Shown one piece after another: positions 2,632 through 45,900 of a stretch of DNA of 49,603 nucleotides. Position 1 is the stretch's first letter. The number at the start of each line of letters is the position of its first letter. This stretch comes from Gammaproteobacteria bacterium (lineage in GTDB: Bacteria; Pseudomonadota; Gammaproteobacteria; JBPCXB01), in assembly GCA_051008935.1 (NCBI GenBank), contig JBPCXB010000144.1:1-49603 (forward strand). Reading direction: 5' to 3'. The notes below the pieces were generated by a model. The model was not told the DNA's origin, did no database searches, and saw nothing but the letters and a program-made list of their open reading frames with translations. The position numbers were made by a program, and so were the translations under genes.

Positions 2632-4474
2632 AAGCACGCAAAACTTCGCAGAGTGCTTGTTTGAACTGACAATGAGCCTGACCCCCGAGGCCACAATCGA
2701 ACAACGCAACCTGTGCCAGCTATGCTGCTCTGAACTGGCAGCAGCCTTCAGCCTCTTCGAGACCAGTTGCACGCTCCCCGCTCAGCTTGCGGGCATGAGC
2801 CCTGCGGCTATCGCCGATAAGCTGATACAAATGGGCGCCGCTCTACCCGCCGATACGCAAAAAATGGCCGCTGCTCTTTTTGAATCCAGTCCGTTTTTAA
2901 TCATTACCGACCAGCAGAAACTGACCCTTAAAAGCCTGTATGCCCAGCAGCTCGACACGGTGCGCAGATTAAATCAGCTGGCAATCAGTCGGCCCACTGA
3001 TGCCAGCATCCTGCAAGCCTGTGAAGAACCACAGGGCTGGCTCGATCAATACCTACCAGCGGCCGAATTTACTGCCTGCCAGCGCGCAGCAGCGCAATCG
3101 GCATTAACAGGGAAACTGACGCTGGTATCCGGCGGTGCAGGTACCGGCAAAACTACAACTATGGTACGCATAGCCGCGATGTTTATGCAGCTGACAGGAC
3201 AAACGCAATCTGTGGCTCTAGCTGCCTTCACCGGCCGAGCGGCACTGAGGCTCGGGCTGGCTGCCGAAATGAACCGCGATCATTCACCAGAATCACATGG
3301 TGTTTCGCTCTACAGACAGTGCTTTACCCTCCACCGCCTGCTGGGCTTAAACACACCTTCTGCACCAGCCGAGCTGCAAGCAGTCAAGCTGCTGATTGTC
3401 GATGAAGCATCTATGATTGATGCAGCCATCTTTCAGCAACTACTCATACAGCTGCCCACGGATTGCCACTTAATTCTGGTCGGCGATGAAAACCAGCTGC
3501 CTCCTATCAACCTAGGCCGCCCATTTTCCGAGCTGGTCTCGGCTTCCGAAGCTCAGAACCTGCCATCCGAAGACCTACAGAAATCTGCACTGGGCCGACA
3601 CATCAAGCTCACCCGCCCTTTTCGATTTCAGGCGCGCTCTGAGCTGGGGCAACTGGCCGACGAAATACTTCACGAACCTGCCAAGGCGCTGGATCGCCTG
3701 CTAAATAGCCCCAGTGATGAATCAGAGGCAAATATCCGCTGGTTGCCGCTACCGGACGTCGAAAACAATAGCCCGCAACACCGACAGGCACACCGCCATC
3801 TGCTCCATATACTCAGCCACCATTGGCGCACCGAACGCTTCGCTACAGATCCCGAACAGGCCCTGGATCAACTGCAAAACATGCGCATCCTGTGCCGTCG
3901 CGAAACAGGCCCGCTGGGATACAAAAACATCAACCGCGACATCACTCTGGCCCTTGGGCAGGCAGGCGCGCTTGATCTGCCAGCTGATGCCACCAATACA
4001 ACTAATACAACCAATACATCCACTACACCTAACTCGACGCAGCTTCCTTGGATGGCACACTGCCCCATTTTGATCCAAGAAAACGATCGCATTCTGGATC
4101 TGCGCAACGGCGAAATGGGCATTGTTCTAGATACCCCCGAGGGCTTGCGTGCATTTTTCAAAAGCCAGAACACCCTTCAGGTTTTTGCACTCTGGGAGTT
4201 GCCTGCCCATTCGTTGGGATGGGCCATCAGCATTCACCGCAGCCAAGGTAGCGAATACGACCGTGCAGCGGTCATCGTGCCGACACTTGATGACCATCCG
4301 TCCTCCGCTTGCGCTGAACTCTATACGGCCATCACGCGCGCCCGCAAGCAAGTTCTAGTAGTAGCCACAGCCAACAACCTCGAACGCCTACTCCTCGAAA
4401 GCAGGCCTACCTACTCAGACCTCACCCCTCTGCTGACAGCTGTGCCTACTACTCCCACCTCTATTCCAAGTTAA
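2624..4474 (+). CDS. recD: Exodeoxyribonuclease V alpha subunit
   Basis: Walker A GGAGTGKTT, IVDEASM, LVGDENQLPP, NGEMG, SIHRSQGSEY, LYTAITRAR; directly after recB. Confidence 0.93.
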   Translation: MTESTQNFAECLFELTMSLTPEATIEQRNLCQLCCSELAAAFSLFETSCTLPAQLAGMSPAAIADKLIQMGAALPADTQKMAAALFESSPFLIITDQQKLTLKSLYAQQLDTVRRLNQLAISRPTDASILQACEEPQGWLDQYLPAAEFTACQRAAAQSALTGKLTLVSGGAGTGKTTTMVRIAAMFMQLTGQTQSVALAAFTGRAALRLGLAAEMNRDHSPESHGVSLYRQCFTLHRLLGLNTPSAPAELQAVKLLIVDEASMIDAAIFQQLLIQLPTDCHLILVGDENQLPPINLGRPFSELVSASEAQNLPSEDLQKSALGRHIKLTRPFRFQARSELGQLADEILHEPAKALDRLLNSPSDESEANIRWLPLPDVENNSPQHRQAHRHLLHILSHHWRTERFATDPEQALDQLQNMRILCRRETGPLGYKNINRDITLALGQAGALDLPADATNTTNTTNTSTTPNSTQLPWMAHCPILIQENDRILDLRNGEMGIVLDTPEGLRAFFKSQNTLQVFALWELPAHSLGWAISIHRSQGSEYDRAAVIVPTLDDHPSSACAELYTAITRARKQVLVVATANNLERLLLESRPTYSDLTPLLTAVPTTPTSIPS

Positions 4475-4503
4475 GACAACCAGCAAAACTAATCGCGCAA
4501 CGG

Positions 4504-4532
4504 TTGCACATTGCTAAATTGCGCTCTAAAAT
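4504..4532 (+). promoter_or_regulatory. Putative sigma70 promoter of the infC operon
   Basis: TTGCAC (4504-4509), 17-nt spacer, TAAAAT (4527-4532) in the recD-infC gap. Confidence 0.55.
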
Positions 4533-4671
4533 GGCTCATCGTAATGCAATACCTTACAGAAGGTGCGCACATCGCTACCATCCGACACTATCTAATGGTG
4601 ATACCATGGCAAGCTCAGCGCCCAATACCTACCTCTGTATCCTTCCCTTTTCATCACTCAGGTAATCAATC

Positions 4672-5286
4672 ATAGCGAGCAATCGTAAGGCTCTGGTCAA
4701 CGATCAGATTAAGGCAGACCAAGTCCGACTCATCAGCGCCGATGGCGAGCTTATGGGCATTCTTTCCCTGTCCAAAGCGCGCGAAAAAGCCGAGCAACAG
4801 CAAATGGATCTGGTGCAGATGCCCAACAGCGGCAACCCCATTGTCTGCCGCCTGATGGACTACGGCAAGCATTTGTTTGAACTCAAAAAAAATCAAGCTT
4901 CATCACGTAAGCGCCACAAAAAAACCCAGATCAAAGAAATCAAATTCAGACTGAGTACAGAAGAAGGCGATTACCAGGTCAAACTCCGGAAAATGAAACA
5001 GTTTCTCTCTGCAGGCGATAAAACCAAAGTCAGCCTACGCTTGCGCGGGCGCGAAGCACAACGCCAAGACCATGCGCTAACCCTGTTAAGCCGCATCAGC
5101 GAAGATATGAAAGAGTACGGGAGTGTCGAGCAGGCACCTCAACGTATGGAGAATCGCCAATTCATACTCACTCTGGCGCCGACGCGCAAAGCAGGAACAA
5201 CCGCTAAGAAAACCAGCGACGCTATCGATAGCAAAACTGCTAAAATGGAGTCCGGTACCAAAGTTGCGGCGCCTACACAGTCATAA
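4672..5286 (+). CDS. infC: Translation initiation factor IF-3, non-canonical start (ATA 4672 or ATC 4669)
   Basis: The frame upstream of the track's ATG 4753 encodes the IF3 N-terminus ([27 protein letters not shown]) back to an in-frame TAA at 4663. AGGT at 4660-4663 precedes ATC/ATA. Also CRLMDYGK and IKEIKFR. Confidence 0.92.
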
Positions 5287-5381
5287 CATCATCGATATCT
5301 GACTCCATCAGGCCCGTACAACCGATTCCAAACCCCGCCCTCGCCCCGACCCTATCGTATTCTGCAAACCCGAATCTGGCC

Positions 5382-5576
5382 ATGCCCAAACTCAAAACCC
5401 ACAAAGGCACTGCCAAACGTTTTCAGGTTACAGGTTCTGGCATCAAGCGCAAACAGGCGAATAAGCGCCATAACTTCACCAACAAAAACCAAAAATCCAA
5501 ACGGCAGTTGCGCGGAACTGTAGCACCCTCAGGTGCTGACATGCCCCGCATTGGCCGCTTATTAAAAATCTGCTGA
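5382..5576 (+). CDS. rpmI: 50S ribosomal protein L35
   Basis: [20 protein letters not shown]; position between infC and rplT. Confidence 0.97.
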
Positions 5577-5582
5577 CCTATC

Positions 5583-5936
5583 ATGACTAGAGCTACGCAA
5601 GCTGTCGTTCGGCGGAAACGACACAAAAAAATCCTACAACAGGCATCGGGCTATCGTGGAGCGCGTAGCCGCAATTTCCGTACCGCCTTGCCTGCCGTTA
5701 TCAAGGCGTCGCAGTACGCTTACCGCGACCGACGCCAGAATAAGCGCGAATTTCGCCGACTCTGGATCCAAAGATTGAATGCTGCCTGCCGCCTAAACGG
5801 CACCAATTACAGCCGCTTCATGCACCAGTTAGGGCAATCAGGCATCGAACTGGATCGCAAAGTACTGGCCGAAATGGCCGTCCACGATGCTAAAAACTTT
5901 GCGAACCTGGTCAAACAATTGAATCTAAGCGGCTAA
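5583..5936 (+). CDS. rplT: 50S ribosomal protein L20
   Basis: GYRGARSR, YAYRDRRQNKREFRRLWIQRLNAA, LDRKVLAEMA. Confidence 0.97.
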   Translation: MTRATQAVVRRKRHKKILQQASGYRGARSRNFRTALPAVIKASQYAYRDRRQNKREFRRLWIQRLNAACRLNGTNYSRFMHQLGQSGIELDRKVLAEMAVHDAKNFANLVKQLNLSG

Positions 5937-5946
5937 AACCGATTCA

Positions 5947-6999
5947 ATGCCCGATTCATCGCCAACCGACCGCCTTCCCCCCACCAACCAATCCTCTCTC
6001 GACAACCTGAGCCAGCTTGCGCTACAGGAAATTTCCGAAGCAGGCACCACTGACCAGCTGCATAGCATCCAAATCAGCTATCTGGGCAAAAACGGCTCCG
6101 TCAATCAAGTCATGCGCACCATCGGCCAGATGGAAGCGAGCCAACGCCCCCTCATGGGCAAAAAAATGCAACAGGTGCGTCACAGCATCGAGCAGGCACT
6201 GAACCAGCGCGTGACGCACCTGCAACAGCAGTTAGACGCCGACCGCATCGCATCCGAAACTCTGGATGTTACCCTGCCAGCACGTCTGGACTCTGTAGGC
6301 TCAATCCACCCGGTCAGCCAAATGATGCAGCGCATCTGTAGTTGGTTCTCGGCGCGCGGTTACCAACTGGCCACTGGGCCAGAAATAGAAGATACCTGGC
6401 ACAACTTCACCGCCCTCAATATGGGCGAAGACCATCCGGCACGTGCCATGCACGATACCTTTTACTTCAACCCAGAGCTACTGCTGCGTACCCACACATC
6501 CCCGGTACAAATCCGCGCGCTACTGGCGCAAAAACCCCCGCTACGTATCATCTGCCCGGGCAAAGTATACCGGCGCGATTCCGACCTCACCCACACCCCC
6601 ATGTTTCATCAGGTTGAAGGGCTAGTAGTCGATCGGGATATCAGCCTCGCACAACTCAAAGGCACCCTGCAAGAATTTCTGCATTACTTGTTCGGCGCAC
6701 ACAAAGAACTGCGCTTTCGCACCTCTTTCTTTCCCTTCACAGAGCCTTCTGTCGAAGTAGACGTGCAATGCATGCAATGCACCGGTTCAGGCTGCCGAGG
6801 CTGCAAAGACGGCTGGCTAGAAATTCTGGGCGCAGGTCTCGTACATCCACAGGTGCTGGAAAACTGCAATCTGGATAGCGAACAATGGTCGGGGTTTGCC
6901 TTCGGCATGGGGATAGAACGTTTGATTATGCTGTTTCACGGTGTCGCCGACATGCGCCTGTGCTTCGAAAACGACCTGCGTTTTCTCCATCAGTTCTGA
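5947..6999 (+). CDS. pheS: Phenylalanine-tRNA ligase alpha subunit
   Basis: HPARAMHDTFY, LLRTHTSPVQ, HTPMFHQVEG, FPFTEPS, GFAFGMGIERL. Confidence 0.98.
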   Translation: MPDSSPTDRLPPTNQSSLDNLSQLALQEISEAGTTDQLHSIQISYLGKNGSVNQVMRTIGQMEASQRPLMGKKMQQVRHSIEQALNQRVTHLQQQLDADRIASETLDVTLPARLDSVGSIHPVSQMMQRICSWFSARGYQLATGPEIEDTWHNFTALNMGEDHPARAMHDTFYFNPELLLRTHTSPVQIRALLAQKPPLRIICPGKVYRRDSDLTHTPMFHQVEGLVVDRDISLAQLKGTLQEFLHYLFGAHKELRFRTSFFPFTEPSVEVDVQCMQCTGSGCRGCKDGWLEILGAGLVHPQVLENCNLDSEQWSGFAFGMGIERLIMLFHGVADMRLCFENDLRFLHQF

Positions 7000-7005
7000 T
7001 CTGCC

Positions 7006-9537
7006 ATGAAAGCCCCCCTGTCGCTTTTGCGCACCTTTGCGCCTGATTTGCCCAGTGCTAGAGACCTCGCCTCTGTCATGACAGTTGCTGGCCTAGAAGT
7101 AGACAGCATCGAAGCAGCTGCCCCGGATTTTTCACAGGTCGTGGTGGGGCGCATTCTCTCGGCAGAAGCCATCAAAGGAAGCCGCAAGCTCAGCCTCTGC
7201 CAAGTGGCACTAAGCGACGCTAAGCATGCCAAAACCGCCGCAATTGTCTGCGGTGCTGATAATATCGAGACGGGGGCACTCTACCCCGTGGCTCTGCCCG
7301 GTAGTACGCTGCCCCAAGGCTTTCTGATCGGCCGACGCAAAATGGCGGGCGTCGAATCCGAGGGTATGATCTGCTCAGAATCCGAGCTGGGCATCGGTAC
7401 CGACAGCGATGGCATCATGCGCCTTCCAGACCATCTGCAGCCGGGAATTGACCTCAGAAAAGCTCTGGATCTAGATGATGAAATACTGCATTTTGACATT
7501 ACCCCCAACCGCGCCGATTGTTTCAGCCTCGAGGGTTTGGCGCGGGACGCAGCAGCGCTCTTAGGCCTCAAATTCCACCCCTGGAAGCCCAGTGCCCGCA
7601 GCACCAAGCAGCTGACACCAACCTCAGAAGACGATGCACAACTATCGATACAATCTGAATATGCGAGTGGCTGCCCGCGCTACCTCGGCGCCGTCATCCA
7701 GAACTGCCAACCTGGCCAAAGCTCCCCTTACTGGCTGCGCGAACTGCTTCGCAGAATGGGGCACAACAGTATTAACGCAGCCGTAGACATCACGAACTAC
7801 GTCATGCTGGAACTCGGCCAGCCGCTCCACGCTTTTGACTTCGACAGGGTACAGGGCGGTATTTGCATTCGCAAACCCCACCAAAACGAGACCCTCAAAC
7901 TCCTGAACGGAACAGACTATACGCTACACCCAGAAGATCTGCTCATTGCCGATCACCACAAACCTCTAGCACTGGCAGGCGTCATGGGCGGTATGGATTC
8001 AGGGATTCAGCCCGAAAGCCGCTCTATTTTGCTGGAGAGCGCTTGGTTCAAACCCTCCATGATAGCAGCCACTTCGATGCGCTACCATCTCATCAGCGAA
8101 GCATCCCGCCGCTTTGAACGTGGAGTCAGCCGGCAACTACAGCAACGCGCCCTCATACGGGCACTGGGACTTTGCGCAGACATACTCGGCAGCACGCCAA
8201 CCCACCGAGGGCACTATTCCAACGACTCTGCCTTCCCCACCTTCCCACCTATCCATCTGCACGACAATAAATTGCGCCGGATTCTGGGCACCAAGCCCGA
8301 TCAAAAGAAACTAACCGCTGGATTCAAACGTCTAGAATTGCAACCTGTGCGCAAAGATTCCGGCTGGCAAGTGCAGCCCCCAGCGCATCGGTTCGACCTC
8401 AACATAGCCGAGGATGTGGCTGAAGAAGCGGCGCGATTGATAGGCTACGACCAGCTCCCCAGCGCACCATCTGTCACCACAACTGCCGCCACTGAAGCAC
8501 AGGATAGCGCCGTCCAAACACGCCAACAAGCCTACGGACACATCCGCCAAAACTTAGTAGCACAGGGCTTTAGCGAAATCCTGAGCTACAGCTTTATCGA
8601 CCCGGCATTGCAAAAAGAGCTGATACCGTCAGCACGCCCTCAGGAAATCCTCGCGCTAGCAAGCCCACTTGCCAGTACCCAATCGGAGATGCGTATCAGC
8701 CTCATCCCCGGTCTGTTACAGGCTGCCGCCCATAATCTGGCCCACCAGTACGAACGCATCCGACTCTTTGAATTAGGACATTGCTTCCGGCGCACCCTTT
8801 CTGAGCCAAGCGAGCTCAGTCAACCCAAACATCTGGCTGGGCTCATGCTAGGCAACCGACACCCTCGGTCCTGGGCTTGGCAGCAGCAAGACGCCTTCGA
8901 TTTCTACGATGCCAAAGCCGTACTGGAAAAACTGCTCTCGGTTCGGCTGAGCTACCGCAGCCCCAGCCACATATCCGAATTGCCCGAATGGCTGACACAT
9001 TGGCTGCAGCATCCACAAGACAGCGATAGCTGCCACGACGCCAACCTGCATCCAGGCCAATGCGCTCTGATTCTGGCGCACCCAGAAGCGCACGCCAGCC
9101 CTCAGGCATTGGGCTGGGTCGGCAGGCTGCATCCAGACAAAATGCCCTTACTCGGTGGCACCAAGCACCCGGCCATCTGCTTTGAGATCCATCTAGACGC
9201 ACTGCCCAGCCTGGCAACTAGTTCCGTTCGCCCCGGCCCCGTCCGCTTTAAAAAATTCGACCGCTTACCGCGCATCAAGCGTGATCTGTCGCTGAAAGTA
9301 CCCTGGGAAACCACAGCAGCCACCCTGATACAACTGGCCTCTGAAGCAGCCGGCTCCGAACTACTGAACTGCCAGATCTTTGATGTACATATCCCCCCGG
9401 AACCGAGCTTCAGATATCTGGCTTTGAATCTGGAATGGCAACCCATAGAAAACAGTTGGACCTCTACACAAATAGATCAAAAGGTCGGACGCATTCTGAA
9501 GCATCTGCAACAGCATCAGATACAACTGCGCACCTAG
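7006..9537 (+). CDS. pheT: Phenylalanine-tRNA ligase beta subunit
   Basis: GVESEGMICSESELG, ITPNRADC, VDITNYVMLELGQPLHAFD, RFERG, HRFDLNIAEDVAEEAARLIGYD; follows pheS. Confidence 0.97.
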   Translation: MKAPLSLLRTFAPDLPSARDLASVMTVAGLEVDSIEAAAPDFSQVVVGRILSAEAIKGSRKLSLCQVALSDAKHAKTAAIVCGADNIETGALYPVALPGSTLPQGFLIGRRKMAGVESEGMICSESELGIGTDSDGIMRLPDHLQPGIDLRKALDLDDEILHFDITPNRADCFSLEGLARDAAALLGLKFHPWKPSARSTKQLTPTSEDDAQLSIQSEYASGCPRYLGAVIQNCQPGQSSPYWLRELLRRMGHNSINAAVDITNYVMLELGQPLHAFDFDRVQGGICIRKPHQNETLKLLNGTDYTLHPEDLLIADHHKPLALAGVMGGMDSGIQPESRSILLESAWFKPSMIAATSMRYHLISEASRRFERGVSRQLQQRALIRALGLCADILGSTPTHRGHYSNDSAFPTFPPIHLHDNKLRRILGTKPDQKKLTAGFKRLELQPVRKDSGWQVQPPAHRFDLNIAEDVAEEAARLIGYDQLPSAPSVTTTAATEAQDSAVQTRQQAYGHIRQNLVAQGFSEILSYSFIDPALQKELIPSARPQEILALASPLASTQSEMRISLIPGLLQAAAHNLAHQYERIRLFELGHCFRRTLSEPSELSQPKHLAGLMLGNRHPRSWAWQQQDAFDFYDAKAVLEKLLSVRLSYRSPSHISELPEWLTHWLQHPQDSDSCHDANLHPGQCALILAHPEAHASPQALGWVGRLHPDKMPLLGGTKHPAICFEIHLDALPSLATSSVRPGPVRFKKFDRLPRIKRDLSLKVPWETTAATLIQLASEAAGSELLNCQIFDVHIPPEPSFRYLALNLEWQPIENSWTSTQIDQKVGRILKHLQQHQIQLRT

Positions 9538-14535: not shown

Positions 14536-16335
14536 ATGCCATCCACACGCCCCGCAAAGCGAATCGTGCAAAGCGGCCGAGCTCTCAACCTGAAGCTCAA
14601 AACCCACCTCCAAACCGCCGCTGCCCTGTGGCATAACCACCCCAGTTCACCAGCACTCTGGGGGCCTCGGCTGTTTCACTGGCTCGAACACAGCCATCTA
14701 CGCTTTGCGCAAGCCACCGACCGCATAGAACCCGCTATCTTCTTCAGCATACTTGCCCTGATGCTGATCTGGATTCTAGGCACTTGGAACATCAGCCCCA
14801 ATCCAGATGCCTACTACCACATGGGAGTAGCTGCTTCCTACATGGCTGCCTGGGTAAACGATCAATGGCTGCGCCTGTTCCCTATGCTGCCGTTTACTAT
14901 TCTGGCTGCCGACCCATTCCCCAACGCTTACCTGCTACAACACCTACTGCTTTCTGGCCTCACGCGCGTATTGCCAGCCGATCAAGCACTTTTTGCCGGT
15001 ATGGGGCTGACTGGCTTTGCCCTAATCGCCAGCCTGTATCTGGTATTGAGAGGCTGTCAGGTACGGGGGGCGATATTCTGGGCGCAACTGGGCTGGCTGG
15101 CATCCCCTTCGTTGTTCACTTACACCCTGTTCCTGAAAGGCGCCTCAGTCTTTCTCATCCTAACCGTCTGGCTCATCAATGCGCTGATACGTAAACGCAA
15201 TCTGCACATTTTCCTCATCAGCCTGGCCATAGGCTACTCTTATGTAGCGGCTTATCTGATCATACCTATAGCCGCTTGCTTTACGCTTGCGGCTCTGTTG
15301 TACGAGCGCCGATGGCAGTGGCAACCTGTTGCCATCACCACAGGTGCCTATTTGCTGGCCACGCTCATCAACCCGGGTTTCCCCAGCAATATACAGCTGA
15401 TCCTGCTTGAATTCGGCCATGCGCTGAACTTCCCCGGCGATCGAGCTGCCGGCATCTGGATCGGTGCCGAATGGTCTCATATCTCGCTGCACTCTCTGGT
15501 ACAGTCGCTGGGCTTTGCGCTCGGCCCTTGGCTGCTGCTAACCTTACTATTGCCTTTTAAAGGCCCGGTGTTATACCGGTTGGGTAGCTGCCTGACGCTG
15601 TCGATATTCTCTCTGGCTATCGCTTTCTATGCCGGCAGTAAAGGTATTGCTCTAGCAGCCATATTGATGAGCTTGGCACTGCCAATAGCCCTGCAAGAAC
15701 TCAACGGACGCCCTTGGACTGTCTGGGCAACTGCCTTATGGCTGCTGGCCATAGTCAGCCTCGTGCAACCACAAATCATGCAGTTTAAAAGCGACCGCCC
15801 CAGCTTCATTCATCAGGCAGCCTACATGGCGCGCCAGGCCAATGCCCACGCCGGCGATAATCGGGTCATCCTAGCCGGCTGGTCGGATTTTCCTTGGCTG
15901 TTGTATTTCAACCCCCGCAACTACTATGTGGCCGGCATGAACCTGCTATTCCTTCAGGCCAGCCCAGAGCGGCTGCACGCCTACCAAAAGCTGCTCTCAG
16001 GCCAGATCAAACACCCGGAAATTCTCATACCCCGTTGCTTCTATGCCGACCTCGTCATTACAGACCGCCAACAGCGCCCCATCAGACCCAGCCTCTACCA
16101 GCAATTGCGCCAAAATCCCTTCTTTACTGAGCTGCAATTGGAGCATCCCATGCCGCGGGCATTTTTTCTGCTGGACCGCACAAAGGTTGAACCCGAGCTG
16201 GCGCGCTTCAGCACTCTGCAATCGACAACACAGACCGAAGCTACCGCAGAACCTGCCAATAGCCGCAGCACGCTACCGGCCTGTAGCGAGCCAGATCCAG
16301 CACACGCAACCCCAGCAACCCCAGCAACCCCATAA
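14536..16335 (+). CDS. Polytopic membrane protein, probable GT-C-fold glycosyltransferase
   Basis: About 11-13 hydrophobic segments, PDAYYH motif in the first extracytoplasmic loop, GAEW loop, soluble C-terminal domain starting VILAGWSDFPWLLYFN (ArnT/PMT/STT3-like layout). Start uncertain. Confidence 0.6.
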   Translation: MPSTRPAKRIVQSGRALNLKLKTHLQTAAALWHNHPSSPALWGPRLFHWLEHSHLRFAQATDRIEPAIFFSILALMLIWILGTWNISPNPDAYYHMGVAASYMAAWVNDQWLRLFPMLPFTILAADPFPNAYLLQHLLLSGLTRVLPADQALFAGMGLTGFALIASLYLVLRGCQVRGAIFWAQLGWLASPSLFTYTLFLKGASVFLILTVWLINALIRKRNLHIFLISLAIGYSYVAAYLIIPIAACFTLAALLYERRWQWQPVAITTGAYLLATLINPGFPSNIQLILLEFGHALNFPGDRAAGIWIGAEWSHISLHSLVQSLGFALGPWLLLTLLLPFKGPVLYRLGSCLTLSIFSLAIAFYAGSKGIALAAILMSLALPIALQELNGRPWTVWATALWLLAIVSLVQPQIMQFKSDRPSFIHQAAYMARQANAHAGDNRVILAGWSDFPWLLYFNPRNYYVAGMNLLFLQASPERLHAYQKLLSGQIKHPEILIPRCFYADLVITDRQQRPIRPSLYQQLRQNPFFTELQLEHPMPRAFFLLDRTKVEPELARFSTLQSTTQTEATAEPANSRSTLPACSEPDPAHATPATPATP

Positions 16336-16381
16336 CCAGATATAATGGCTAGCCTACGCATGAAATGCCCCTGCAAAAAAT

Positions 16382-16390
16382 TGCTATAAT
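16382..16390 (+). promoter_or_regulatory. Putative extended -10 promoter upstream of the autotransporter triplet
   Basis: Perfect TGnTATAAT (TGCTATAAT) in the intergenic gap; a second TATAAT lies at 16341. Confidence 0.45.
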
Positions 16391-16619
16391 ACATCAGCAA
16401 GTATAAAGTCACATTCAAGCCATTGCAGACGGTATCCATCTACAGACTGAGTACTCTCTAAAATACCTGTATCAGCATACCTCTACCCGCACATGCGCAT
16501 CTGCTGTGCGTTTGCGTAAAGGCCCCATCAAGTAACCGCTTATGACCATCCATTTCTATTCCCCTGCTGCTTCCTGTGCGCTGGCAACTGCGCCAGCACA
16601 CCAACCAAGAGCCATCGCC

Positions 16620-17627
16620 ATGAAATCACTTGCTATTATGGGCCTGATCGGGCTGGTACTCGTTTCAGCAACCCCCGCCGCCTTTGCGATAACGAACATA
16701 GGTACCTCCCCATCCTGTTTTTCCGATAGTACTGGTGTTCGTTACGACAATTGGTTCTCTTGGAATGCCTGTACCAATAGCAACTCCGATTATTACGACT
16801 ACAACAATATTAAAAGAGACTTCGCCCCGATTAGAGCATATCTTTCAGTCTTGGAGAATTCCGGCTTGCAAGCTGCCCGTAACAGCATCTCAAATTTGGA
16901 ACTACTAGATGAAAGCTTTCTAGCGATTGAGACGGCTGCGTTTGTGGCCCCTAACAGGCTGTTGGGAAATGAGTTTGCCGTATCCTCCGACGGCACCGGC
17001 TTTGGCGTAGGCGACTTTTTGAACGCGATGGCGCTGTCGCTGTATGGTGTACACGGCGGCGATACCGACCAGACGCTGATGGCTGCTGTGCAACAGGGGC
17101 AAGCCATCACTCTGGCTCAGTACGCACAGCCCAATACCGTGCCCATCGACAGTTCTTCTGCTGCTGGCCGCACAACAAGCAGCACGTTGTCAGTCCAGCA
17201 ATTGGACGATGGTGTTACTTTGATAGAGCGCTCCAACTACTGGGCTGCGCGCATCGGCCTCGACCCCAACGAAGCAGCCGACCCCAACGGCACCATTCAA
17301 GCGCAGCTCAACTGGGCCAAGAGCTTTTTTAACTATACTCCCCCTGAAGACGGAGAATCCGGATCCGGATCCGGACTGGCGCGCGCTAGCTATCACGATG
17401 AATACATCATCGGCGCGGCCATGGCGGCCTCTCTGGGCGATCCGCACGTGCCAGCGGGTAAAAATACCGCCGTTTCTATCGGCCGCAGCTTCTACAAAGG
17501 TGAAACGCCCACTTCAATGGGGGTGGCCATGCGCGTGGGTTACGCCGGCCGTATGAGTCTGGTGGCGGCTTTTAGCGAAGACCGCAACCGCAGCCTGTAT
17601 CGATTGGGCTATTCCACTGCTTGGTAA
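16620..17627 (+). CDS. Short trimeric autotransporter-like protein, paralog 1 (YadA-type C-terminal anchor)
   Basis: Signal peptide MKSLAIMGLIGLVLVSATPAAFA (upstream ATG 16542 also possible). C-terminal GAAMAASLGDP..G..AVSIGRSFYKGE..SMGVA..YRLGYSTAW fits a helix plus 4 beta-strands ending in an aromatic residue. Confidence 0.72.
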   Translation: MKSLAIMGLIGLVLVSATPAAFAITNIGTSPSCFSDSTGVRYDNWFSWNACTNSNSDYYDYNNIKRDFAPIRAYLSVLENSGLQAARNSISNLELLDESFLAIETAAFVAPNRLLGNEFAVSSDGTGFGVGDFLNAMALSLYGVHGGDTDQTLMAAVQQGQAITLAQYAQPNTVPIDSSSAAGRTTSSTLSVQQLDDGVTLIERSNYWAARIGLDPNEAADPNGTIQAQLNWAKSFFNYTPPEDGESGSGSGLARASYHDEYIIGAAMAASLGDPHVPAGKNTAVSIGRSFYKGETPTSMGVAMRVGYAGRMSLVAAFSEDRNRSLYRLGYSTAW

Positions 17628-17687
17628 CACAGGCCTTAGCACACAGGCACAATTATGTACACAAGAACACACGCACGAGGAACCACT

Positions 17688-18539
17688 ATGAGGCAGCTGT
17701 CACTACTGAGCCTGAGCATTCTGATTCTGGGCACCCTGCCGCCTCTGGATGCCAATGCTCAATCTGCCTGTGCATTTACCAGCGTTGAAGGCGACACCTC
17801 ATACGGCAGCCTCAGCGCTCTGATGGCGCCCTGCCAAAACGAACTGGACGACCTGCAAGGCGCAGTGCGCGATGCCCATGAAAACGTAATTTCTGCGGGT
17901 ACCGGCGTGACTGCGGATCAGACCGCAGCTTTAGAAACGGCCGAAACAAACCTGTTGACCGGGCTGCAGTCTTTTGCCACCAGCTTAAATGCCCGCGATG
18001 ACGATCAGGCAGCTGGCGCCAGTTGGATTGCTTTGGCTGTCGACCTGCTGGGTTTTGACAATTACGATACCAATCCAAACCTAAGAGCCAATAGAAGCGT
18101 CAGCCAAGCGGATTACCAGTCTTCTAACCTGATTCAACGGCGCAACTACTGGGGCGAACGGATTGGCCTGGATGAGCTTGCCGCACCCGACCCCAGCGGC
18201 AGCATCCAAAGCCAGCTCAACTGGCTAAAAGGCAATTTAGGTGTCGATATCACAGCGGCGCAGCAAGACTCAGAGGCGGCCACGCTGGCTGCAACCGGCC
18301 TGAGTGTTGGGGATTATTACCGCAGCGTTGCCTTATCAGCCAGCATCAATGACCCCTACGTACCCGCAGGGGCTCGCGGCAGTTTTGCCATCAATTTCGC
18401 CTCTTTTGAGTTGGCCTCCGCGCTGTCTTTCGGCTTTGCTTCTGCCATCGGTCGCAACTCCCGCCTGTCGATCAGTGCGGCTGTCACGCGTGATGAACAA
18501 GAAAACCTGATGCGCGCCACCTACTCAATCAACTGGTAA
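17688..18539 (+). CDS. Short trimeric autotransporter-like protein, paralog 2
   Basis: GAGG RBS before ATG 17688; signal peptide MRQLSLLSLSILILGTLPPLDANA; anchor SVALSASINDPYVPAG..FAINFASFE..ALSFGFA..ATYSINW. Confidence 0.72.
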   Translation: MRQLSLLSLSILILGTLPPLDANAQSACAFTSVEGDTSYGSLSALMAPCQNELDDLQGAVRDAHENVISAGTGVTADQTAALETAETNLLTGLQSFATSLNARDDDQAAGASWIALAVDLLGFDNYDTNPNLRANRSVSQADYQSSNLIQRRNYWGERIGLDELAAPDPSGSIQSQLNWLKGNLGVDITAAQQDSEAATLAATGLSVGDYYRSVALSASINDPYVPAGARGSFAINFASFELASALSFGFASAIGRNSRLSISAAVTRDEQENLMRATYSINW

Positions 18540-18560
18540 CCCCAGATTTTTGCACCTGCT

Positions 18561-19568
18561 ATGAGAGTACCTATGATCCATCTGCCTGCTCCCCAGCCCG
18601 TTTTCGCACGGCGCCAGTTGCTGACTGTCATGATAGCAATAATGGCCATGACTATTGCGCTAATTGCGCCCAACTGGGCGGCCGCTCAGGCTCAGAATAT
18701 TGACCGAGGCAGCACCGCTTGTACAGACCTAGCCGATGTGGATGTGTCGCTGCTGCATGGGGATGAAAGCGTATCGACCTCCACCGATACTGGTATTGCG
18801 CATTTTAACGAGTGCCGCGGGGTTGACATGCGCTACACCCGCAACCAAATTAGCGCCGCTGCTGCAGATTCAGCAGCTCTGGATGCCCTGTATAGCGAGT
18901 TGGAAACTCAGGAACTGAATGTAAAAAATTATCTAACGGGCGCCTACACCGACTATGCCCGCAATCTAATCCAACTGTACGGGCACAATTCGGGCCCCTA
19001 TGGCTGGTCAGCCACCTCCTTCGACAATAACACCGGCGACTTCGCCTTTCTGTTCCAAGATTGGGCTTTGGGCAATACCATCAGCCGCTACCGCTACCGC
19101 ACGCAACCTCTGACCGACACCAGCCTCTATTGGGCCTATCGCATCGGGTTGGACCCCAATGTAGCCGCCAATGCACACGGCAGTATCCAAGAGCAGCTCA
19201 ACTGGGTCAAGCAAACGCTAGTTGGAGTGGGTGCCTCGGCCGGTTCCATTGACGTAGATGATGCAGATGCTTCTTCCCCCAGCGCAACAGGAGCAGACAC
19301 CAGCCAGCAAACTGCAGTCAGCAACCTGCTGGATAGCTTCAGACGGGGTACCGCTATTGCCGCTGCCCTGCAAGACCCCTACATACCAGTTGCCCGCCGT
19401 TCGGCGTTCAGCATTCATTTTGCAACTTATGAACAAGAAACCGCTATGTCATTTGGGCTGGCTTCGATCGTAGGTACCAGAGGCCGGTTTAACTTTTCGG
19501 CTTCGATGCACACTCAGCTAACAAAAGAAACCCTGTATCGAACCGGTTACAGCATATTCTGGTATTGA
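18561..19568 (+). CDS. Short trimeric autotransporter-like protein, paralog 3
   Basis: Signal peptide ending near NWAAAQA; anchor RRGTAIAAALQDPYIP..FSIHFATYEQETAMSFGLA..YRTGYSIFWY. Confidence 0.72.
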   Translation: MRVPMIHLPAPQPVFARRQLLTVMIAIMAMTIALIAPNWAAAQAQNIDRGSTACTDLADVDVSLLHGDESVSTSTDTGIAHFNECRGVDMRYTRNQISAAAADSAALDALYSELETQELNVKNYLTGAYTDYARNLIQLYGHNSGPYGWSATSFDNNTGDFAFLFQDWALGNTISRYRYRTQPLTDTSLYWAYRIGLDPNVAANAHGSIQEQLNWVKQTLVGVGASAGSIDVDDADASSPSATGADTSQQTAVSNLLDSFRRGTAIAAALQDPYIPVARRSAFSIHFATYEQETAMSFGLASIVGTRGRFNFSASMHTQLTKETLYRTGYSIFWY

Positions 19569-19645: not shown

Positions 19646-20401
19646 TCAGCGCTGGATAGGTGCCATACGCCTTCTCAGCCGGATCAGCTCAACCAGAGTA
19701 GCCATCAGCGCCCAGGGGCTGAAACGTGAGCCCCCTCGGTTGGCCCAAGATACGCCGCATTCCCCAACCTTTAGTCCGGCACGTTCAGCCATCCAGATCA
19801 GTTCCACATCAAAACCAGCACCGCATAGCTGCGTTTGAGCCACCAACGGCTTGACTCGGCTGCTGTTGAGCAATTTAAAGCCGCATTGCGTATCCCGATA
19901 GGTCAAGCCAGTCAGCCTGCGCACAACTCGGTTGCCACACCAGCTGATGCAGCGCCGCCACAGCGGCGGCTGAACCTGAATACTAGCAGGCTGCATGCGC
20001 CTCGAACCAATGACCAGATCGCAACCTTGCAGGCGCTGACGCAACCTAAAGTACTCGTTCAACGGAGTAGATAGGTCGCAGTCACTCACCAGTATCTGTT
20101 TGCCGCACGCTGCCAAAATACCCGCTCGGCAGGCAGCCCCTTTACCCAGATGGGCTGGTAACTTTACAGCGCGTACGGCAGCGTATTGTGCCGCCAAAGC
20201 CTGTATTTGCACAAAGGTATCATCTGCTGACCCATCATCGACCAGCACCAGCTCACTGTCCGCTACTTGATCCAAGAACTCCAGATAGCAGGGGGTATAG
20301 CGGCTGAGGCGCTTTTTTTCGCAATAGAGGGGAATGACCAGAGAGACAGCACAACCGCCATCTGTAACGGGGATGCCGTCTGAAGCCTGCCTTGGCTTCA
20401 A
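19646..20401 (-). CDS. GT2 glycosyltransferase, dolichyl/polyprenyl-phosphate glycosyltransferase (DPM1/ALG5-like)
   Basis: SLVIPLY, VDDGSADDT, HLGKGAACRAG, SDCDLSTP (DxD), IGSR, DTQCGFKL, GFDVEL. Confidence 0.88.
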   Translation of the reverse strand: MKPRQASDGIPVTDGGCAVSLVIPLYCEKKRLSRYTPCYLEFLDQVADSELVLVDDGSADDTFVQIQALAAQYAAVRAVKLPAHLGKGAACRAGILAACGKQILVSDCDLSTPLNEYFRLRQRLQGCDLVIGSRRMQPASIQVQPPLWRRCISWCGNRVVRRLTGLTYRDTQCGFKLLNSSRVKPLVAQTQLCGAGFDVELIWMAERAGLKVGECGVSWANRGGSRFSPWALMATLVELIRLRRRMAPIQR

Positions 20402-21988: not shown

Positions 21989-23215
21989 ATGGTCGTTGAC
22001 ATTCTAGGTTTTATTATCGGCACTCTCGCCAGTGTCGAGCTATCGGCACTTCTGATCACCGGCATGTTTGTGCTGGCTTTGATGGGGCAGCTGGGTTATT
22101 CCTCTCGCCCCTTCCTCGCTGGCTTGGCACGCAACGCCCCCACCTTGCTGACCTCCTTGGGCATTACCTTTACCTTTATGGGTGTGCTGCGCGGGCTGCT
22201 TGATTTTGACCTTGACAACATAGATGTGGGCATCAGCGAGCTTCTGGAAGGGCTAAAAGTGGCCTTTATGTCCAGTGTTTTGGGTATTTCCTTTGCCTTT
22301 ATATTTCGTCTGGTCGCTATCAACGATAGCGAAGAGGCACTGAGTTCAGATGACCCAATCGACATCATGCGCAACGGCCTGCAAGGTATTATCGATGCTA
22401 TTAAAGGAAGCGAAGAAGGCAGCATGGTTAATCAGATGGAAGCACTCAGAGAGACCTTTGAAAGCCAGACCCAGCACCTCCATCAGTCGTTCAAAGAATT
22501 CACCCAGAGTGTCGTTGACTCTGGTACCGAAGCCATGATGCAGTCACTGACCGACATTGTCACCAACTTTAATGGCCAAATCACCGATCAATTCGGCGGC
22601 AATCTGGAACAGTTCAACGGCGCAGTCACCAACCTGATGAAATGGCAGCAGGACTATAAAGTGGAGCTGGACGGCGTTATGGGCAACATGGGCAACATCC
22701 GCGATGCTCTGACGACCTCTACCAACCGCATGGAATCCGTTTCTCAAGAGACAGGTAACCTATCTGCCGGGCTTTCTGCGATGCAAGACGCCTTGGCTAC
22801 TTTCCGATCTGAAATTGAAAGTATGGAGTCGGGTATGCGCACTTTGTCAGATGTTAAAGACAAAGCGCAAGAAGCTCTGCCAGAAATGTCCAAAGGTCTG
22901 GATGCCGCTCTTACCAAGATCACAGCGGTCAACAAATCGGTTGCCGATGGACTACAAAAAAGCTCTGATTTGCAGACTCAGGCCGCTCAATTAATAGCCG
23001 CTACTGCCGAGAAGTTGGAAGAACGTATCCAGCAATCTCAGGCCGCTATGCAGAAAACCAGCGAAGAGTCTGTGTCTATAGTCAGCGCTAATATCGAACA
23101 ACTAGACCGCAGCATGCAAGACGAGATCCAGCGTTGTGTACAGGCAATGGCCAATAACATTACCCGCATCACAGAAGAATTTGTCAAGCAGTACGAAAGA
23201 CTGGCAAAAAGCTGA
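21989..23215 (+). CDS. zorA: ZorA-like MotA/TolQ/ExbB channel protein with helical cytoplasmic tail
   Basis: Three N-terminal TMs with APTLLTSLGITFTFMG..GL..FD..ISELLEGLKVAFMSSVLG, then about 290 aa of heptad-like helix (FNGQITDQFGGNLEQFNGAVTNLMKWQQDYK). Confidence 0.82.
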   Translation: MVVDILGFIIGTLASVELSALLITGMFVLALMGQLGYSSRPFLAGLARNAPTLLTSLGITFTFMGVLRGLLDFDLDNIDVGISELLEGLKVAFMSSVLGISFAFIFRLVAINDSEEALSSDDPIDIMRNGLQGIIDAIKGSEEGSMVNQMEALRETFESQTQHLHQSFKEFTQSVVDSGTEAMMQSLTDIVTNFNGQITDQFGGNLEQFNGAVTNLMKWQQDYKVELDGVMGNMGNIRDALTTSTNRMESVSQETGNLSAGLSAMQDALATFRSEIESMESGMRTLSDVKDKAQEALPEMSKGLDAALTKITAVNKSVADGLQKSSDLQTQAAQLIAATAEKLEERIQQSQAAMQKTSEESVSIVSANIEQLDRSMQDEIQRCVQAMANNITRITEEFVKQYERLAKS

Positions 23216-23248: not shown

Positions 23249-23926
23249 ATGATTTATAACAACGCCAAGAGCGAAGAAGATAATTGGGTATCAACCTCTG
23301 ACCTGATGGCGGGGCTGATGATTATCTTTCTGTTTATTGCCATCGCCTACATCAAAAGCATCGGCCAAGAAGAAAAGCAGGCAGCAAACGACATCTGCAA
23401 CCAGTTGGAAAGCGCTTTTGAAGATTTCAAGTGGCGGGATCGGATTGAAGTCTGTATCGAGCCTCTGGTTGTGCGCTTTACAGACCCTGAAACCCTGTTT
23501 GAACGAGGCAGCGCCAGCCTGACACGGGACTTTCAACAGATGCTGGAGGCCTTCATACCACGCTACATGAGCGTAGTGGATAGCCATCAGAGCCAGATCG
23601 GCAAAATTCGTATCGAGGGCCATACAGACGATGCCTGGGGCAACGAACAAGACCCCATCGCCAAGTTCTACAACAATATGTACCTCAGTCAGAGCCGAAC
23701 CTACTCAGTACTGCATTTTTCGTTGCAGCAAAAAGAGCTGCGCAAAGAACCCGAATGGGCCATCAAGCATCTGGAATCAGTCGGCCGTTCGTCCAGCGAC
23801 CCCATTGTTGCAGAAAACGGTGGTGTCGACCACGACCGCTCCCGACGGGTAGATTTCCGCATCCAACTCAATATCCGTGCCAAACGTCTGGGGCAACTGG
23901 CGGGCGTTGATATCGCTACCAATTGA
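23249..23926 (+). CDS. zorB: ZorB-like OmpA/MotB-family protein
   Basis: WVSTSDLMAGLMIIFLFI single TM with conserved Asp; OmpA domain IRIEGHTD, NMYLSQSR, SRRVDFRI; follows the zorA-like gene. Confidence 0.88.
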   Translation: MIYNNAKSEEDNWVSTSDLMAGLMIIFLFIAIAYIKSIGQEEKQAANDICNQLESAFEDFKWRDRIEVCIEPLVVRFTDPETLFERGSASLTRDFQQMLEAFIPRYMSVVDSHQSQIGKIRIEGHTDDAWGNEQDPIAKFYNNMYLSQSRTYSVLHFSLQQKELRKEPEWAIKHLESVGRSSSDPIVAENGGVDHDRSRRVDFRIQLNIRAKRLGQLAGVDIATN

Positions 23927-42822: not shown

Positions 42823-42953
42823 TAATAGCAAAATCAAAAAGTCACGCAAAATATTAGGTAACATAGGTATTGCAACAGAGTCTTGCGTCCGTGGCTGAAA
42901 AGTGTGCAGCCAAACGCAAACACAGTATGAATAGGGCAAGGGAGAAAACAACA

Positions 42954-45900
42954 ATGCATGCAATAGTTAACCACTACCACCGGTTTACAAACCTGGTATC
43001 AGGCACGTTACTATTCCTGATTACCGCACTGGTGTTAGCCGCCTGTAGCAGTGGTGGTGGCGGCGGCGGGGGCGGTGCCGATCTAGTCATTGAGCCAGCC
43101 AATGAGGGTTGGGACTTTCAGGTCACCGCATCGGTCAGTAGTGCGGTTGTAGCAGTTGGCGACTCTTTCACTCTGACTGCTATGGTGAGCAATGCCAGCG
43201 ATGCTAGCGCGCCATCACCTGCAAACACACTGACTTATTACCAGTCAAGCGATGCAACTATTGACTCAAGCGATACCGAGCTGGCTACGGATGCAGTGGC
43301 TAGTTTGGCTGTGGGCGCTTCAGACACTCAAGATATAACCCCAACGGCACCAACCGCTGCTAGTACATACTACTATGGGGCCTGTATGCCGGCCACTGGT
43401 GACGAACTGAATGCATCGGATAACTGCAGTTCAGGAGTGGCCGTAACTGTTACCGCTGGTTGGGACTTTCAAGTCACCGCATCGGTCGATAGTGCTAATG
43501 TAACGGGTAGTACCCCTTTCACGCTGACCGCTGTCGTCAGCAATGCCGGCAGTGCTAGTGGACCAACTCCTACTAGAACGCTGAGCTATTACCAGTCCAG
43601 CGATGCCACTATCGACTCAAGTGATACCGAGCTAGACACGGCTGCAGTGGCCAGCTTGGCGGCGGGCGCTTCGTCGAACCAAAGCATTGATGTAACCATT
43701 GCATCGGCTTCTGGCACCTACTATTACGGGGCCTGTATGCCGGCTGACTCTGGTGATGTAGATGCGTCTAATAATTGCAGTTCTGGGGTAGAAGTTACTG
43801 TTACCAGTGGTTGGGACTTTCAAGTCAGCCTATCGGTCAGTAGTGCTAGTGTAGAGGTCGAAGAGGCTTTTACAGTGACTGCTGTAGTGAGCAACGGCGG
43901 TTTTGCCAACCAACCATCACCTGAAAGCACACTGAGCTATTACCAATCCAGCGATGCCACCATCAGCTCAGCCGATACCGAGCTAGACACGGATGCAGTG
44001 GCCAGCTTGGCTGTAGATGCTTCGGACACTCAAAGTTTCAACGCAACGGCACCATCAGTTGCTGGCACCTACTACTATGGAGCTTGTATACCAAACACCG
44101 GTAACGAATTAGAAACGTCTGATAACTGCAGCGCCGGAGTGGCCGTCACTGTGGGCGGTTGGGACTTTCAAGTCACGGTATCTGCTGATAGTGTTGTAGA
44201 GGGTGGTCAATTTTTTGTGCTGACTACTGTTATTAGCAATGCTAGCGATGCTAAGGGCCCAACACCTGCAAGCACACTGACCTATTACCAGTCCAGCGAT
44301 GCCACCATCGACTCAACCGATACCTCGTTAGGCACGGATCCAGTGGCGTCTTTAGCTGTAGATGCTTCGGACACTGAAAATATCACCCTAACGGCACCAG
44401 CGGCTACTGGCACCTACTATTACGGGGGCTGTATGCCGGCCACCGGTATCGAATTGAATGCGTCTGATAACTGCAGTCTCGGTGTAGCCGTAACCGTTTC
44501 CACAGGTTGGGACTTTCAAGTCACCGCATCGGCCAGCAGTGCGAGTATATTGAAGGGCAAAGATTTGACGCTGACTGCTGAAGTAAGCAATGCCAGTGAT
44601 GCGCTTTCACCATCACCTGCAAGCAGGCTGAGCTATTACTACTCCAGCGATGCCACCATTGACTCAAGCGATAGTTTTCTAGCTAGTAACGCAGTGCCTA
44701 TCTTGACAGTGGGTGCTTCACTCACCGACGCTATCACAACAAATACCGTGTTTCTTGCTCATGGCACCTACTATTTCGGAGCCTGTATGCCAGCTACTGC
44801 AGGTGATGCAAATGCGTCTGATAACTGCAGTGCCGGGGTGGCCGTAACCGTTACCGGTGGTTGGGACTTTCAAGTCAACCTATCGGTCAGCAGCGCTAGC
44901 GTAGAGGTGGGCGACTCTTTGACGCTGACTGCTGTAGTGAAAAATGCCGACGGTGCGGCTCTACCAACACCTGAAGGCACACTGCTCTATGAAGAACTGG
45001 ATAGTGATTATAATGTCACCCTCATTGGAATGGATACAGTGCCTATCTTAGCAGTGGGGGATTCGTCCACCCAAGATTTCAGCACAACGGCTCCAGCGAC
45101 TGCTGGTTCTTATACTTATAGAGCTTGTGCGCCATTCGGTGGAATGGAACAACTTCCTGGTGATAACTGCAGTTCTTTGGTGGCCGTTACTGTTACCAGT
45201 AGTTGGGATTTCACAGTCACCGCATCGGTCGACAATACCAGTGTAGCGGTCGGCGACTCTTTCACGCTGACTGCTATGGTGAGCAACGCCAGTGATGCTA
45301 GCGCGCCAACACCTGCAAACACGCTGCGCTATTACCAATCCAGCGATGCAACCATCAGCTCAGCCGATACCGAGCTAGACACGGATGCAGTAGCTGTCTT
45401 AGCTGCGGGCGATTCGTCCAGTCAAGATACAACCCCAACGGCACCAGCGACTGCTGGCACTTACTACTACGGGGCCTGTATGCCGGCCACCGGTGATGAA
45501 GCAAATGCAGCGGATAATTGCAGTGCCGGGGTGGCCGTTATCGTGGGGGGGTGGGACTTTCAAGTCACCGCATCGGTCAGCAGTGCTAATGTATCGGGTA
45601 GTACCCCTTTCACGCTGACTGCTATGGTGAGCAACGCCAGCAGTGCTGATGGATCAACTCCTACAAGTACGCTGACCTATTACCAATCCAGCGATGCGAC
45701 TATCGACTCAAACGATACCCCGCAAGGCACGGATCCCGTGGCTAGTTTGGCTGCGGGTACGTCAGACACTTACAGCATCGACCCAACAGCACCAACCGCT
45801 TCTGGCACCTACTATTACGGGGCCTGTATGCCGGCTACCGGTACCGAATTGAATGCAACGGATAACTGCAGCTCTGGGGTGGCCGTCACTTTTACCAGTG

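Follow-up and report, generated by a model that had tools for sequence, protein, structure and literature searches.

Three small genes standing in tandem on the forward strand of a 49,603-nucleotide stretch of gammaproteobacterial DNA (contig JBPCXB010000144.1 of assembly GCA_051008935.1; this whole stretch is the window) encode type Vc autotransporters, proteins that end in the YadA-type anchor. The genes, here called A, B and C, belong to a very rare and unannotated type Vc subfamily. Trimeric autotransporter adhesins (TAAs) are textbook obligate homotrimeric outer-membrane proteins. In the reading put forward here, which is held at about even chances, A, B and C would each form a homotrimer of their own, and the trio would stem from an ancient tandem triplication and supply three fibres with different tips.

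Three YadA-anchored genes in tandem

The assignment to type Vc is confirmed by PF03895 (YadA_anchor), which all three C-termini match as the first-pass annotation had proposed, and by the fold predicted for one of them. The anchors lie at 17442-17624 in A (ending GYSTAW), 18354-18536 in B and 19398-19565 in C (ending YSIFWY). In an hmmscan search the scores are 23.4 bits for A, 20.7 for C and 16.5 for B, only that of A being above the cut-off of 22.7. In a six-frame search A (27.5 bits) and C (23.0) are above it and B (19.4) is below. The motif DP[HY][VI]P is present in each chain as DPHVP, DPYVP and DPYIP, and the final residues are W, W and Y. In the genome of the window (G000; 1.87 Mb, 97% complete) the trio provides the only credible PF03895 anchors, and a single gene for Omp85/BamA has been detected (187.7 bits).

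The fold was modelled for B only, and that of the A and C anchors is expected to be the same from alignment. The AlphaFold model of B has a mean predicted local distance difference test score (pLDDT) of 73.5; the value rises to 94-97 over residues 211-280, which fold as a helix and then four strands (231-240, 243-253, 258-267 and 273-281, pLDDT about 95). The best matches of this model in the PDB, found with Foldseek, are the transmembrane domains of Hia (3emo, 2gr7, 2gr8), AtaA (9vnj) and YadA (2lme). For example, B superimposes on Hia 2gr8 with a template-modelling (TM) score of 0.79 and a root-mean-square deviation of 2.2 Å over 78 columns. A PDB profile search returned no match for the anchor or for the module described below.

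The three proteins align over their full lengths at 28-30% identity. They find each other at E-values of 1e-21 to 1e-23, with 36-37% identity over the C-terminal 150-200 residues, a likeness well outside what chance would give. Each begins with a hydrophobic leader, read by eye, that ends in AFA in A, ANA in B and AAA or AQA in C. The signal peptides so read are MKSLAIMGLIGLVLVSATPAAFA in A (16620-16688), MRQLSLLSLSILILGTLPPLDANA in B (17688-17759) and MIHLPAPQPVFARRQLLTVMIAIMAMTIALIAPNWAAAQA in C (18573-18692), the last with a long n-region and an uncertain cleavage point after AAA or AQA. The mature chains, of 312 (A), 259 (B) and 291 (C) amino acids, have exactly two cysteines each near the N-terminus, at positions 10 and 28 in A, 4 and 25 in B, and 10 and 41 in C. 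The passengers are acidic, with net charges of -12 in A, -16 in B and -12 in C. In the model of B the passenger helices span residues 42-70, 76-103 and 107-120.

Ahead of the anchor, all three chains contain a conserved module, [NL]YW..RIGLD, then 7-9 residues, then G[ST]IQ.QLNW.K. It is found as NYWAARIGLDPNEAADPNGTIQAQLNWAK in A (17208-17339; 70.0 bits with a hidden Markov model, HMM, of the module), as NYWGERIGLDELAAPDPSGSIQSQLNWLK in B (18117-18248; 62.1 bits; helix-loop-helix in the model, residues 148-184) and as LYWAYRIGLDPNVAANAHGSIQEQLNWVK in C (19098-19229; 64.3 bits). Pfam has no model for it. Module and anchor are joined in each chain by a low-complexity stretch with many G, S, A, D and T residues. 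In A this linker (PPEDGESGSGSG...) occupies 17340-17441 together with the start of the anchor helix. The corresponding segment of B (18249-18353) has a pLDDT of 51-71 at residues 181-210 and includes the helix (207-219) that precedes strand 1, and that of C (19230-19397), placed by alignment, holds the longest linker of the three. No Hep_Hag (PF05658), HIM/stalk (PF05662) or other adhesin family was found in A, B or C at E≤10 in Pfam, which bears out the earlier statement that head and neck repeats are missing. Such repeats mark common passenger types and do not define membership of type Vc. An NCBIfam search with the three proteins gave no match, and a feature search of the Atlas with residues 24-200 of A gave no usable one, all structural neighbours being below a TM score of 0.41.

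The longest open reading frames (ORFs) of the trio are 16542-17627 (361 amino acids), 17655-18539 (294) and 18561-19568 (335). Judging from public gene calls and from the sequence near the start codons, translation is likely to begin at 16620 in A (MKSLAIM), at 17688 in B (MRQLSLL) and at 18573 or 18561 in C. From these likely starts, gene A (16620-17627) would encode 335 amino acids, gene B (17688-18539) 283 and gene C (18573-19568) 331; the product of A is P0001 of the public protein calls. The sequence GAGGA is found 7 nucleotides 5' of the ATG of B. The earlier description of three co-oriented, closely spaced genes of one architecture thus holds for frames, anchors, DP[HY][VI]P motifs and aromatic ends alike.

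Gaps of 60 nucleotides between A and B and of 21-33 between B and C separate the genes, and a consensus scan found no terminator-like site in either. Because the gaps are short and lack such sites, the simplest reading of this arrangement is that A, B and C form one operon. Its promoter would presumably lie in the 284-nucleotide intergenic leader before A (16336-16619). The same scan gave no sigma-70-like site there, and its counts over the region are at chance level (3 promoter-like sites against 2.6 expected, 3 terminator-like sites against 3.1).

The trio is also present in sequencing runs. In run X2 it is contiguous in one Logan contig of 21,116 bases with 0 differences; in run X1 a contig of 9,040 bases is contiguous as far as 19275 and a second extends to 19700. 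Both are DNA runs of one study, perhaps the source of the window itself, and so do not count as independent evidence. No RNA run carrying the trio is among the listed holders, the third of which, X3, has a 241-base piece only. The X1 and X2 contigs cease to align at 16315 and continue as loosely placed sequence (window about 16300-16315). This point is in the stretch that encodes the (Ala-Thr-Pro)n tail of the membrane protein upstream and may reflect a difference in repeat copies or an edge effect of alignment.

A rare subfamily and its other gene sets

Proteins of this kind are scarce. In the 40 nearest genomes, all of which share only the class with G000, no family member was found (0/40). 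A profile of the trio run against 1.84 billion representative proteins matched 37 at E≤0.001 and 12 at E≤1e-10, three of them the window's own. PF03895 anchors as such were detected in 15 of the 400 scored genomes of the class. A protein-guided scan for the relatives' loci yielded 29 stretches in species genomes and 66 in metagenomes, none confirmed as family. A degenerate DNA pattern for YWxxRIGLDP marked 15 and 18 loci in the same two collections, all 33 of which were chance matches when their ORFs were read.

The relatives that are informative come from ENA or Logan assemblies and include P0003 (626 amino acids), P0005 (805), P0006 (581), P0007 (210), P0008 (370), P0009 (750) and P0012 (602); P0003 and P0005 to P0009 were found with profile A1 at E-values of 1e-26 to 1e-52. 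The long ones have heads made of repeats of an 11-residue type (e.g., IADEAVTTEKI), followed by the module, present as a single copy in some of them and as five to seven copies in others. Measured from a point 10 residues ahead of the motif, the distance from the last module to the C-terminus is 114-135 residues in every relative and 139, 140 and 156 in A, B and C, since only these carry the low-complexity insertion before the anchor helix. The insertion of A is absent from 11 of the 11 other rows of profile A8, which covers the module (YWxxRIGLD...GxIQxQLNW) and the anchor. No Hep_Hag or HIM family was found in eight relatives at E≤0.01. The heads have a weak repeat match to PDB 9eg4_H (E 0.01, PDB profile search), and repeats similar to the heads of P0003, P0008, P0009 and P0012 occur in many phage tail-fibre-like proteins, with PF03906, PF03406 and PF10651 among the matches.

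A second group of small proteins with YadA anchors has also been observed. P0016, P0050 and P0051 (300, 380 and 290 amino acids) are near-identical, fall in one 90% cluster and all report a contig of 20,655 bases; P0049 is listed alongside. Their called ORFs lack a signal peptide, and they may stem from a recent tandem amplification or be pieces of a gene array rich in repeats.

A trio comparable to that of the window is found in another genome of the same class, G122 (1.47 Mb in one contig, 89% complete). Its three genes are on the minus strand of locus L041 at 7177-9522, 4958-7183 and 2775-4964, beside surA and pdxA. They encode 781 (740 from an internal Met), 741 and 729 amino acids, are 32-38% identical and co-linear, and carry a distant form of the module, ANYLA..VG...GTL.QR.NW, with the same kind of anchor. 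Against A8 they score 146.5, 140.8 and 135.1 bits. The window's own C, B and A score 153.4, 150.5 and 148.8 bits over profile positions 1-121, a match by construction because all three were included in the profile; independent support comes from the relatives found with A1. The likeness to the window therefore lies in the class of bacteria, in the three co-oriented, co-linear paralogs and in the distant version of module plus anchor. In contrast to A, B and C, the G122 proteins are of about 730-740 residues with long repeat passengers, their genes overlap, and they have neither the linker nor the N-terminal cysteine pair.

In the genome collection G000 and G122 are each alone in their family, and a search of the 61 genomes around G122 returned only G122 itself and weak repeat matches in G055. 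G122 has a second locus, L042, where two genes of a different TAA type (888 and 975 amino acids, 12-nucleotide gap) stand in tandem at 865-6471 on the plus strand. No third member stands on either side of the pair, and it is preceded by a small beta-barrel outer-membrane protein, P0042. Tandem TAA pairs have been seen in both G122 and G596.

Further sets of paralogs come from metagenomic contigs, where co-location is judged from equal reported contig sizes and neither adjacency nor gene order is seen directly; the method was checked on P0001, P0002 and P0004, each of which is reported with 49,603 bases. A contig of 36,615 bases (X) is reported for P0005 (805 amino acids), P0045 (736) and P0185 (547), one of 2,357,027 bases (Y) for P0067 and P0186, one of 10,440 bases (Z) for P0006 and P0068, and one of 10,322 bases for P0013 and P0011. 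Among the contig sizes that are readable, no co-located paralog was found for P0003, P0007, P0008, P0009 or P0012.

In a tree of module plus anchor from 19 proteins, the G122 trio forms one clade (support 100/100) and the seven proteins of X, Y and Z another (98/97). The latter clade divides into three types: T1 with P0005, P0067 and P0068 (100/99), T2 with P0006 and P0185 (100/98) and T3 with P0045 and P0186 (100/100). Anchor identity is 93-99% among members of one type and 50-59% when types are compared, and each type is conserved across the organisms of this sister clade. For a monophyletic origin of A, B and C the approximately unbiased test decides neither way, with p-AU 0.354 for this tree and 0.43 for another.

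The sets are not all complete. P0185 has no signal peptide and about 180 of its N-terminal residues are missing, the T3-type gene on the 10,322-base contig is split into P0013 and P0011, and the T2 member of Y was not found by a search that also missed P0045 and P0068, which exist within its size range. Each of the three may be an artefact of gene calling, assembly or searching. The first-pass annotation had proposed a test for triplets with position-specific clades among homologs. Followed in this indirect way, the test shows three-paralog sets (G000, G122 and X) and three type clades, alongside sets with truncated, split or unfound members.

Separate homotrimers or a shared fibre

From what is known of the family, each precursor would be exported by Sec and its signal peptide removed. 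The C-terminal helix and four strands of each chain would join those of two others in a 12-stranded barrel, which the single Omp85/BamA of the cell would insert into the outer membrane. The acidic passenger of about 200 residues would then be threaded out through the barrel to form a short surface fibre, mostly helical, with one module and a cysteine loop at its N-terminus. Adhesion or a surface coat would be its most plausible role. Gene structure, anchor family and fold are matters of observation; export, trimerisation, surface display, function and homotrimer composition are proposed by analogy with the family.

The signal peptide, the helix and four strands per chain, the aromatic C-terminus and the anchor fold are common to the trio and to YadA of Yersinia, Hia of Haemophilus and AtaA of Acinetobacter. 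Unlike these, the trio lacks a Hep_Hag head as well as HIM repeats of neck or stalk. Its passenger is short and helical with a module outside Pfam, a low-complexity insertion precedes the anchor helix, the anchors score at or under the Pfam cut-off, and there are three diverged copies in what would be one operon.

Such differences could also be taken to mean that A, B and C are not working trimeric autotransporters at all, being instead decaying paralogs or a reused anchor, for example a tether that faces the periplasm and keeps its passenger inside. In hmmscan two anchors of the three do fall below the Pfam cut-off, the linker breaks the usual continuous coiled coil into the barrel, and the passenger has no family or fold match in Pfam, the Atlas or the PDB profile search. 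This explanation is nevertheless considered very improbable. No chain looks degenerate, because in each the conserved anchor residues are kept and the module scores in full (62-70 bits); the three reading frames are unbroken and have signal peptides, the anchor fold is predicted at a pLDDT of about 95 and matches Hia, AtaA and YadA, and relatives with the same anchor bear long fibre-like passengers.

Which chains meet in a barrel is a closer matter. All characterised TAAs are homotrimers, and reviews describe TAAs as consisting of three identical subunits. Clusters of TAA genes are known elsewhere, and tandem pairs occur in G122 and G596, which fits separate homotrimers as the default. For example, PMC3404963 describes a cluster in Burkholderia cenocepacia J2315/K56-2 with BCAM0219, BCAM0223 and BCAM0224, two of them in one bicistronic operon, in a genome with seven TAA genes. 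The likeness to the window is in the three clustered TAA genes, two of which are co-transcribed. In contrast to the co-linear mini-genes of the window, these genes encode large adhesins of the Hep_Hag/HIM kind and stand in two divergent units, separated by regulators, and in that paper they are treated as separate homotrimeric adhesins with single-mutant phenotypes.

No natural heterotrimeric TAA was found in the literature, a weak negative as most subscription journals fall outside the coverage. Heterotrimers as such do appear in several papers. PMC6604945 cites Mikula et al. for TAA heterotrimers, and trimers of differently tagged versions of one TAA have been made according to PMC5670179. 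Mixing of two different TAAs is reported in review text to be lethal, and the term 'heterotrimer' concerns only SecYEG and sortase pili in PMC13721041.

Separate homotrimers are judged slightly more likely than a fibre built jointly from A, B and C because of the family default, the unequal chain lengths and the imperfect sets of the sister clade; linker sizes also differ among the three chains. The alternative is that A, B and C, made from one mRNA, build a single fibre, with one of each per 12-stranded barrel or in mixed trimers. Anchors and module would be the shared trimerisation core and the diverged N-terminal parts an asymmetric tip, and the triplicated subunit of a homotrimer would have been fixed because each chain fills one position. 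Taken as a whole this is credible at somewhat less than an even chance. A narrower form is more doubtful and more probably wrong than right: that A, B and C are a dedicated heterotrimeric type Vc autotransporter, a solution repeated by independent triplication in the window, in G122 and in the T1/T2/T3 clade. As part of the same tentative proposal, module number in such a fibre would be kept equal within an organism because each module layer needs all three chains.

Several observations weigh against separate homotrimers and in favour of joint assembly. Exactly three paralogs are present, no other credible YadA anchor is found in their genome, and their co-transcription as one operon would maximise the chance that three homologous anchors cross-assemble. 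In the class survey (the 400 scored genomes plus G000), full-length matches to A8 were found only in G000 and G122, three in each; in a 401-genome survey of the phylum they were found in G000 only, the next best score being 41.7 bits. G000 and G122 are the two genomes where the subfamily can be counted, and both have exactly three tandem copies. Contig X is a further three-paralog set. Since the G122 trio and the X/Y/Z proteins form separate clades, the triplications appear from the tree to be lineage-specific, with at least two and possibly three independent events. The p-AU values for A, B and C, which decide neither way, and the five relatives with no co-located paralog in the contig sizes readable count against joint assembly. 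At both junctions of the G122 trio the next ATG overlaps the preceding Trp and stop codons (caATGGTAG, caATGGTGA), a 7-nucleotide overlap that, as read from the sequence, is the arrangement of translational coupling. Passengers of different kinds on the same transport domain give mixed trimers that are exported, according to PMC3297439 (section 5).

Module numbers point the same way. By HMM count they are 7/7/7 in X (T1/T2/T3), 7/7 in Y (T1/T3) and 5/5 in Z (T1/T2), and the seventh module of X starts 523, 513 and 522 residues from the C-terminus in T1, T2 and T3. In Z, some 112 internal residues corresponding to modules 5-6 of X are missing from T1, where a hybrid module marks the joint, and in T2 the end of the head runs straight into the module equivalent to the fifth of X. 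On this alignment the difference of two modules was reached by different insertions or deletions (indels) in the two types, and equal numbers arrived at through separate indels are what joint assembly predicts. However, this co-variation is one pair of events, it depends on the assignment of proteins to organisms by equal contig size, and a common requirement for fibres of a certain reach would be another explanation. In addition, there is no general compensation of residue length between paralogs. A sign-randomisation test of indel lengths gave P<0.05 in one of 11 pairs (T1-T3 of X, 0.020), with ranges of 0.17-0.47 in G122 and 0.02-0.28 in X, 0.52 in Y, 0.90 in Z, and 0.58, 0.81 and 1.0 for the pairs of the window, where chain lengths are unequal. 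The truncated P0185, the split T3 and the unfound T2 of Y likewise speak against an obligatory set of three.

Prediction of a complex of mature A, B and C with family alignments, C being the partner, gave a score of 0.51 against 0.19 for the best of three controls, graded as 'weak support'. Between runs at least 45% of contacts are shared, and the pLDDT of the partner is at least 48. Of 157 solved complexes, 116 attained the mark applied, as did 2 of 215 mismatched pairs; passing scores of 0.60 or below came from only 18 of those solved complexes and from both of the passing mismatches. The modelled pass suggests that the three chains fit a common barrel, and does not bear on a preference for ABC over AAA, because YadA-type trimers are among the solved structures and A, B and C are cousins. 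It may thus reflect likeness to those trimers. Of the overall proposal in the first-pass annotation, the type Vc structure is upheld by PF03895 and the fold, whereas for a putative 1:1:1 or mixed heterotrimer the circumstantial points run both ways.

In animals, heterotrimers of three paralogous chains are well represented by complement C1q (A, B and C chains) and the heterotrimeric collagens, in which chains are selected by the C-terminal domain. As three homologous chains in one asymmetric trimeric fibre they are a functional analogy to an A-B-C fibre. They differ in having no homology to the trio, in being secreted eukaryotic proteins and in lacking an outer-membrane barrel, and the bacterial heterotrimer is a proposal only.

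A natural A-B-C TAA, if it were confirmed, would be the first of its kind. It would raise the matter of chain selection in the periplasm or at the beta-barrel assembly machinery (BAM), which does not arise with homotrimers, would provide bacteria with asymmetric fibre tips, and would be a ready scaffold for the display of three passengers in fixed proportion. Even with separate homotrimers, the trio defines a rare unannotated TAA subfamily, marked by a new module ahead of the anchor and, in G000, by an unusual flexible linker. The three gene sets, in the window, in G122 and in the metagenomic T1/T2/T3 clade, make the heterotrimer question approachable by co-expression experiments.

Neighbouring genes

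The trio is found among housekeeping genes (infC, pheST, an HU-like gene and those for pyruvate dehydrogenase E1 and E2). A foreign island was considered and rejected in view of these neighbours and of an even GC content (0.51-0.58 around the genes). A plasmid origin was likewise set aside when a tblastn search with the relative P0007 against 72,556 plasmids gave no match.

Immediately upstream, at 14536-16335 on the plus strand, is a gene for a polytopic membrane protein of 599 amino acids with no Pfam match even at E≤1. Its structural neighbours in the Atlas are of the GT-C glycosyltransferase type (an STT3 cluster at a TM score of 0.68 and a Dpy19 cluster at 0.69). Downstream of the trio, at 19646-20401 on the minus strand, is a family 2 glycosyltransferase (GT2; PF00535, 7.7e-13). 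The two look like a possible periplasmic glycosylation pair that flanks the trio, which is offered as a lead only. The cysteine loop of chain A includes the motif WFSWNAC (WxxW), and S, T and G are abundant in all three linkers; the linkers have been considered, again as a lead, as targets of periplasmic glycosylation by the GT-C-like and GT2 proteins.

Further along the plus strand, a gene at 21989-23215 encodes a protein of 408 amino acids with N-terminal membrane segments (MotA_ExbB at E 0.34 only) and a long coiled-coil tail. It is directly followed at 23249-23926 by a gene for an OmpA-family protein (PF00691, 1.5e-8), and from its sequence the pair looks like a stator or anchor. At 42870-47996, also on the plus strand, is a gene for a giant surface or secreted repeat protein of 1708 amino acids with matches to CARDB (2.3e-54), BatD and DUF6386.

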